Shown in pieces: positions 59,012-59,678 of a stretch of DNA of 64,000 nucleotides. A program made the position numbers and the translations under genes. The notes beneath the pieces are model-generated. The model worked only from the letters and a program-made list of their open reading frames with translations. It was not told where the DNA came from and did no database searches. Every line of letters starts with the position of its first letter. The stretch's first letter is position 1. The stretch is taken from the NCBI RefSeq assembly GCF_050920415.1, contig NZ_CP169309.1; one strand, given 5' to 3'. This stretch comes from Escherichia coli (GTDB taxonomy: Bacteria; Pseudomonadota; Gammaproteobacteria; Enterobacterales; Enterobacteriaceae).

Positions 59012-59678
59012 ATAAAAATCACCCAAAAAAACGATAACACACTGTACTCCCTGTGCTTTATAAACATAAAGTCACAACACATTCTATATTCATATTAATT
59101 AATGGCGCATTGAAAAAAAATTATATTATTCTTAACTCAAATCCATTAGCTAAATAAGCTTATATTCTTCACTCACAACCGTAACAAAAATAATATTATC
59201 GAAAGTTAAAGCTGGGACTATCAAATTTCGCTCATTTCAAACATACATTGTGATTTTTGCAATCATCTTAATCTTAGGGCCTATCATCATATGTTAAAAT
59301 TTTGTCAATAATAGAAAAGAATCTTGGTCACCTATCATGCGTTATAAATGTGCAGCTGGCTTCCTGCAGATGCTCTTAACTTCTACAGCAGGATTTATAC
59401 CAGCGTTTCAGAACTATCATATTTACCTTAAATGATCATTTCAGTCTTATAACACGCTCAGCCTCACAAATGGTTTACACTGTCTATTGTTTGGGTAATT
59501 TAAGTAAGTCAGCTACGATCAACCTTGAATGGGGAGCCAGCAATGGACTTAAGCCTAATCGGGTCTTCAGATTGTTTCAGAATTGTATAAAAAACAATGT
59601 ATTAAATAATCTGATTGTTTTTGGTCATAGTGTGACGCAGAAAGCAAGCCAATAAAGCAAGCCAATAAGGAAATGATT

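Follow-up and report, generated by a model that had tools for sequence, protein, structure and literature searches.

The perfect tandem duplication that directly precedes the Shine-Dalgarno (SD) sequence of ybjP in the Escherichia coli DNA analysed here (a 64,000-nt stretch of contig NZ_CP169309.1, hereafter the window) is probably, at a rough probability of 0.8, a private slipped-strand mutation of a single clone, and the AT-rich DNA around it is the ordinary spacer of an islet. The same estimate covers the account as a whole, which makes the spacer the ordinary AT-rich regulatory region between divergent genes at the right-hand end of an uncharacterised islet, with its left part best explained as serving a pentapeptide-repeat protein gene.

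The tandem duplication before ybjP and its distribution

Tandem Repeats Finder places the duplication (AAAGCAAGCCAAT, plus strand) at 59641–59668 in the ybjP 5' leader, with a period of 13, 2.2 copies and 100% matches, and a separate repeat search of the window gave copies at 59641–59653 and 59654–59666. The original prediction had described a tandem 14-bp repeat at the ybjP ribosome-binding site (RBS). The repeat is real, with a period of 13 rather than 14: the 14-mer aagcaagccaataa is seen twice, at 59642–59655 and 59655–59668, because its copies share one base. The repeat also abuts the RBS as described, but the RBS itself is not duplicated, the second copy ending inside the SD. Chance would hardly produce fifteen matches in a row at a single offset, and comparison with one-copy relatives directly shows a real duplication event.

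The islet occurs in two forms, type A (that of the window) and type B. In alignments of the 90 nt before ybjP, two copies were present only in the window and in MFDS1022581 (NZ_CP169399.1; a food isolate from South Korea). The closest type A relatives RMDEC465, 2013C-4282 and N96 have a single copy (...GCAGAAAGCAAGCCAATAAGGAAATG) and are identical over 120 bp around the ybjP start except for the 13 nt; type B strains also have a single copy (...GCAGACAGCAAGCTAATAAGGAAATG), as did 11 of 11 sampled type B and recombinant loci. The unit itself differs by islet type, reading CCAAT in one and CTAAT in the other. Of 5426 complete E. coli genomes, just one, again MFDS1022581, matched a 171-nt query spanning the site over its whole length at 100% identity, and 16 genomes matching it at 92.4% have the identical sequence minus 13 nt. 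Among the 1128 genomes that carry the islet spacer, two copies were thus found in one and a single copy in 1127. Nor is the repeat backbone sequence shared with strains that lack the insert, a possibility that the original prediction had raised: both the duplication and the exact unit are absent there, the corresponding sequence reading ...GCGATCGCTTATAAGGAAAT or ...GTGTTCGCTTATAAGGAAAT, and empty-site strains have ...CGCTTATAAGGAAATC before ybjP.

The window and MFDS1022581 are 100% identical over 24 kb (1–24000), bar a ~1.3-kb insertion in the latter, which also has an IS2 in its pentapeptide gene; the next nearest strain to the window, N96 (99.4%), has one copy. The two records represent one clone, of which the window comes from an IS-poorer member.

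In the one-copy sequence AAGCAAGCCAATAAGG, AAG triplets stand 13 nt apart (AAG at 59642–59644 and the next 13 nt downstream), and the duplication site follows the pattern AAGCAAGCC(A/T)AATAAGG. Slippage would be the simplest origin: one recent event in the window/MFDS1022581 clone, during replication and between these triplets, would have lengthened the ybjP leader by 13 nt immediately before the SD, which is unchanged. As in other slipped-strand tandem duplications, the copies are perfect and head to tail, the bounding AAG triplets lie 13 bp apart, and all close relatives show the one-copy state; we found no difference in kind, the mechanism being read here from sequence alone. Phase-variable contingency repeats resemble this one in that a tandem repeat adjoins a translation start, but only two states (one and two copies) were seen here, with two copies in one clone among 1128 carriers, and the unit is long and complex rather than a homopolymer or a 2–7-nt microsatellite. 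Since the SD, its spacing from the ATG and the coding sequence are untouched, and since the unpaired probabilities of SD/AUG predicted with ViennaRNA are 0.41/0.39 for one copy and 0.40/0.39 for two, we regard the duplication as most likely neutral and without consequence.

The islet in the ybjQ–ybjP spacer

Gene order in the window is ybjS, amiD, ybjQ (minus strand, start 57032), the pentapeptide-repeat gene (minus strand), the spacer, ybjP (plus strand) and artPIQM. Alignment with empty-site strains delimits an islet of ~2.6 kb (about 57092–59665; G+C 28–39%) that takes the place of ~45–55 bp from the central part of the 125-bp ancestral ybjQ–ybjP spacer. Its left break falls at 57091/57092 (CTGATATGC/CATGTTGGG versus CTGATACGC/TATTATTG, slashes marking the break) and its right break a few to ~25 nt before the ybjP start. 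A search of the islet for marks of mobility found no transposase, integrase, terminal repeats or flanking direct repeats, and searches of phage and plasmid collections gave no phage match and, among plasmids, only mislabelled chromosomes.

The ybjQ–ybjP distance is 125 bp in K-12-like and many other E. coli, and in other species (E. albertii, Citrobacter, Salmonella, Enterobacter, Klebsiella) ybjQ, where detected, nearly always lies ~100–130 bp from ybjP. Neither islet DNA nor its protein was found by blastn and tblastn in 80 ybjP loci of ~75 other enterobacterial species. Given the short spacer across these species, we take it to be ancestral and the islet to have been acquired in E. coli and Shigella alone, strains of the latter with the islet having appeared in the protein searches. 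Several Citrobacter species have unrelated inserts of 1.1–3.2 kb in the ybjQ–ybjP spacer, that of C. gillenii containing a 436-aa ORF that by eye resembles an AppA-type acid phosphatase, together with a 91-aa ORF; the spacer looks like a recurrent insertion hot spot.

Within E. coli, the islet spacer is present in 1128 of 5426 complete genomes (~21%) and is always chromosomal. Type A accounts for ~18 genomes (96–100% identity to the window) and type B for ~1108 (83–85%), including O157:H7, O55:H7 and O145. In the same strains, the flanks are ~99% identical between types A and B, as against 70–90% for islet DNA and ~72% for the protein, and sub-forms within type B are 7–9% apart in the left spacer. 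That the A/B divergence is much deeper than that of the backbone flanks suggests old alleles or repeated import. In one strain, 2020CK-00188, the spacer switches from type A to type B, read left to right, with a breakpoint at ~59515, inside the region of the 61-aa ORF discussed below. In O157 Sakai the locus comprises ECs0948 (ybjP), ECs0949/0950 (a split pentapeptide gene) and ECs0952 (ybjQ), and in EDL933 ybjP is Z1095 and the small ORF Z1096.

The pentapeptide-repeat gene (57242–59011, minus strand) encodes a distantly EspX-like protein of 589 aa. Its match to Pfam Pentapeptide_4 (8e-7) is below the curated cut-off; it shares 72% amino-acid identity with the common E. coli form and 22% over 155 aa with Sakai EspX1 (pairwise E = 7e-4). 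An identity with EspX2 was considered and rejected, EspX2 being ECs0876 (Z1019), ~77 loci away from the locus at hand (ECs0949/0950), which is also missing from a published list of EspX1–7 (PMC5931665). No related loci for the protein were found in genome contigs, a protein-database search gave E. coli and Shigella only among the at least 120 matches listed, and a sequence search of the PDB returned no match. The window, RMDEC465 and MB53 have an intact gene. Among the 16 carriers sampled, 13 have a pseudogene instead (frameshifted, truncated, split or IS-interrupted), alongside an intact right spacer and ybjP, and this decay argues against a widely maintained virulence function.

Anatomy of the AT-rich spacer

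Between the ATG of the pentapeptide gene, which ends at 59011 on the minus strand, and the ybjP start at 59679 on the plus strand lie 667 bp (59012–59678) with a G+C content of 32.8%, compared with 50.2% for the window. The original prediction of ~670 bp of AT-rich DNA between divergent starts is thus borne out, the RefSeq start of the pentapeptide gene in RMDEC465 agreeing, and its placement inside a horizontally acquired segment gains support: low G+C together with a patchy distribution (1128 of 5426 E. coli, and absence from other species) is the pattern of xenogeneic DNA. In 200-bp windows, G+C is lowest (25–28%) at 59000–59300, the left end of the spacer. Base composition makes binding or silencing of the spacer by H-NS plausible, and is likewise what the suggested activation by a virulence regulator would rest on; a scan for the H-NS nucleation motif gave one match in the spacer, with two mismatches, which is uninformative either way. 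The islet resembles H-NS-silenced islands with effector-like genes, such as the espX and nle loci of EHEC, in its G+C of 28–39%, its patchiness within the species, its pentapeptide-repeat gene distantly similar to EspX1 and the long AT-rich region upstream of that gene. It differs from them in not being among the EspX1–7 loci, in the frequent decay of its gene and in the many carriers outside LEE-positive pathotypes, and the likeness is here one of sequence and distribution.

RefSeq annotates no CDS in the spacer at any of 15 carrier loci compared. A search of 56500–60500 against Rfam 15 matched no family within the spacer, and its folding energies are unremarkable on either strand (z-scores −1.0 and +1.2). 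The same search gave a weak match to CRISPR-DR53 outside the spacer, between ybjP and artP (60224–60260, minus strand; 25 bits, below the gathering score of 45; E = 0.13), most likely a chance match on a G+C-rich palindrome. In the left spacer, a degenerate 36-bp tandem pair (59127–59198, 72% identity), where ETEC4070 has a 9-bp deletion, may be a chance feature of AT-rich DNA. An AT-rich hairpin at 59567–59614 (11-nt arms, 91% complementary) is followed in type A only by TTGTTTTT (to 59622); we considered it as a terminator and rejected it, since the U-run is missing from type B.

The start and probable promoter of ybjP in islet carriers

ybjP (plus strand, from 59679) encodes 171 aa (NCBIfam PRK10533, 1e-98). 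Its SD (TAAGGA, 59666–59671) stands 7 nt before the ATG (59679–59681), and the RefSeq start is identical in all carriers. The product is a recently identified lipoprotein partner of TolC (bioRxiv 10.1101/2025.03.19.644130) and an abundant lipoprotein in O157:H7, an islet carrier (PMC3210124).

The islet would have displaced the ancestral ybjP promoter region; all that remains of the ancestral spacer in carriers is a 59-bp segment beside ybjQ, 2.6 kb from ybjP. Because this remnant is so far from ybjP and because YbjP is abundant in O157:H7, the carrier promoter must lie in islet DNA, and by exclusion we infer that it is most likely in the right block of the spacer, so that the right ~330 bp of the islet would now act as ybjP promoter and 5' leader. 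That block (59312–59661, plus strand) is the least variable of the islet: ten type B loci have 12 variable sites in its 350 bp versus 40 in the 300 bp of 59012–59311, making it 3–4 times less variable than the left. Types A and B are ~91% identical there as against ~77% on the left, and a 57-nt stretch (59462–59518) is identical in the window, ETEC4070 and EDL933. The block is also retained in CUWW06, in which an IS1-mediated deletion removed the pentapeptide gene and the left spacer, ending at 59331, just before the conserved part, and leaving 59331 onward in place. Low variability on the right could alternatively stem from recombination tracts that enter by way of the conserved ybjP flank; in line with this, 2020CK-00188 is recombinant between types A and B, and identity is also raised at the islet's left end, beside the backbone.

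Consensus promoter matches in the spacer were no commoner than in shuffled sequences. Position-weight-matrix candidates (TTGGGT-17-TACGAT, CTCACA-16-TATTGT and TTTACC-17-TCTTAT) were weak and none was convincing, TATTGT being the only invariant element. The case resembles promoter replacement by insertion into a divergent intergenic region in that the 125-bp spacer has lost its middle, islet DNA alone lies upstream of ybjP, and ybjP is still expressed in O157:H7, with the new promoter placed here by inference from sequence.

The first 60 bp of ybjP (59679–59740), which encode its signal peptide, match those of other carriers at 100% identity and every empty-site allele at 73%; carriers encode MRYRSLSLLIPCA in this region and other strains MRYSKLTMLIPCA. 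This divergence points to the islet having arrived together with a foreign ybjP 5' end. Further into the gene, K-12 ybjP bases 60–300 (window 59740–59980) are 77–83% identical to the window and APEC alleles, the figure for the APEC empty-site allele being 95–100%; ybjP itself thus appears to be a mosaic within E. coli, independent of the islet.

A bolder version of this account, which we consider unlikely, would see in the right third of the spacer a regulatory module, brought by the islet, that controls ybjP in about one-fifth of E. coli in place of the ancestral rpoS-dependent promoter, possibly with a coupled upstream ORF of 60/61 aa, for which the duplication would be a natural uncoupling allele.

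The 61-aa ORF

The only ORF of at least 40 aa in the spacer (59470–59655, plus strand, 61 aa) corresponds to a 60-aa 'hypothetical protein', Z1096, in EDL933. If it did encode a small protein, and were transcribed together with ybjP and coupled to it in translation, the duplication would loosen that coupling: its TAA stop lies inside the first repeat copy, overlaps the ybjP SD in one-copy strains, and is separated from the ybjP ATG by 10 nt with one copy and by 23 nt with two. The frame is open in both deeply diverged islet forms and has been annotated by some depositors, as in Z1096. By codon position, types A and B differ at 0/5/9 sites; 8 codons differ synonymously and 5 non-synonymously, compared with 0/13 and 4/10 in the other two frames.

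Against this, the codon-position tally weakens to 3/6/10 over 16 loci, no SD precedes the ATG at 59470, and nonsense mutations truncate the frame to 36 and 12 aa in two of 16 sampled carriers, leaving it open in 14; a cluster of 53-aa truncated forms also exists. Homologues are confined to E. coli and Shigella, and PGAP calls the ORF in none of the carrier loci compared. Its first 49 nt show no variation, third codon positions included, suggesting constraint at the nucleotide level or shared genealogy rather than constraint on a protein. Pfam and NCBIfam searches gave no match, and a search of 1.84 billion protein representatives recovered its own cluster only, plus four weak matches to unrelated repeat proteins (He_PIG/PD40, Laminin_G_3, fn3/PhoD_N, FG-GAP) that we judged spurious. 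Neither the peptide nor its Sakai coordinates has an entry in the portion consulted of the supplementary tables of novel genes from Sakai RIBOseq (PMC5597208). We therefore keep to the original view of the ORF as featureless and probably spurious, and think it unlikely to be a gene; the coupled small-protein reading of the locus is equally unlikely.

Other explanations of the duplication

The two 13-mers had also been proposed as a repeated operator, and more broadly might be a regulatory gain that alters ybjP expression. Their position in the leader directly upstream of the SD could suit a protein or small-RNA site. However, the two-copy state occurs in no other carrier, which excludes a conserved repeated operator; the unit, which holds an internal AAGC-AAGC repeat, is not palindromic and differs between islet types, no Rfam element was matched there, and RBS accessibility is predicted to be unchanged, making a regulatory role very unlikely. 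A sequencing or assembly artefact is less likely still. Two copies are indeed found in one clone only, and the window and MFDS1022581 assemblies may not be independent, but the two records differ by IS insertions (the IS2 in the pentapeptide gene and the other, ~1.3-kb insertion), and perfect 13-bp duplications are untypical of assembler error in complete genomes. Least tenable is the earlier suggestion of a scar of islet insertion (a target-site duplication or repair footprint), for although the repeat lies within ~10–25 bp of the point where homology between filled and empty sites breaks off on the right, its copies are adjacent instead of flanking the insert and are not shared by carriers, which excludes such a scar, the unit recurs, allowing up to one mismatch, neither at the left junction nor anywhere else in the window (direct matches between the junctions reach at best a 7-mer), the single-copy carriers include the nearest relatives with otherwise identical sequence, and the islet lacks a transposase, integrase and terminal repeats.

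Implications for ybjP in E. coli

As a private slipped-strand mutation, the repeat would be uninformative on how the islet was acquired and would not be a regulatory site. The islet itself bears on ybjP more widely, as the ancestral ybjP promoter region would have been lost from ~21% of complete E. coli genomes, among them O157:H7, O55:H7, O145 and the Shigella strains that appeared in the protein searches. Lacour and Landini (2004), cited in bioRxiv 10.1101/2025.03.19.644130, are reported to have found ybjP to depend on rpoS in K-12. Since ybjP would be driven from islet DNA in carriers, its regulation as described in K-12, rpoS dependence included, may not transfer to them.
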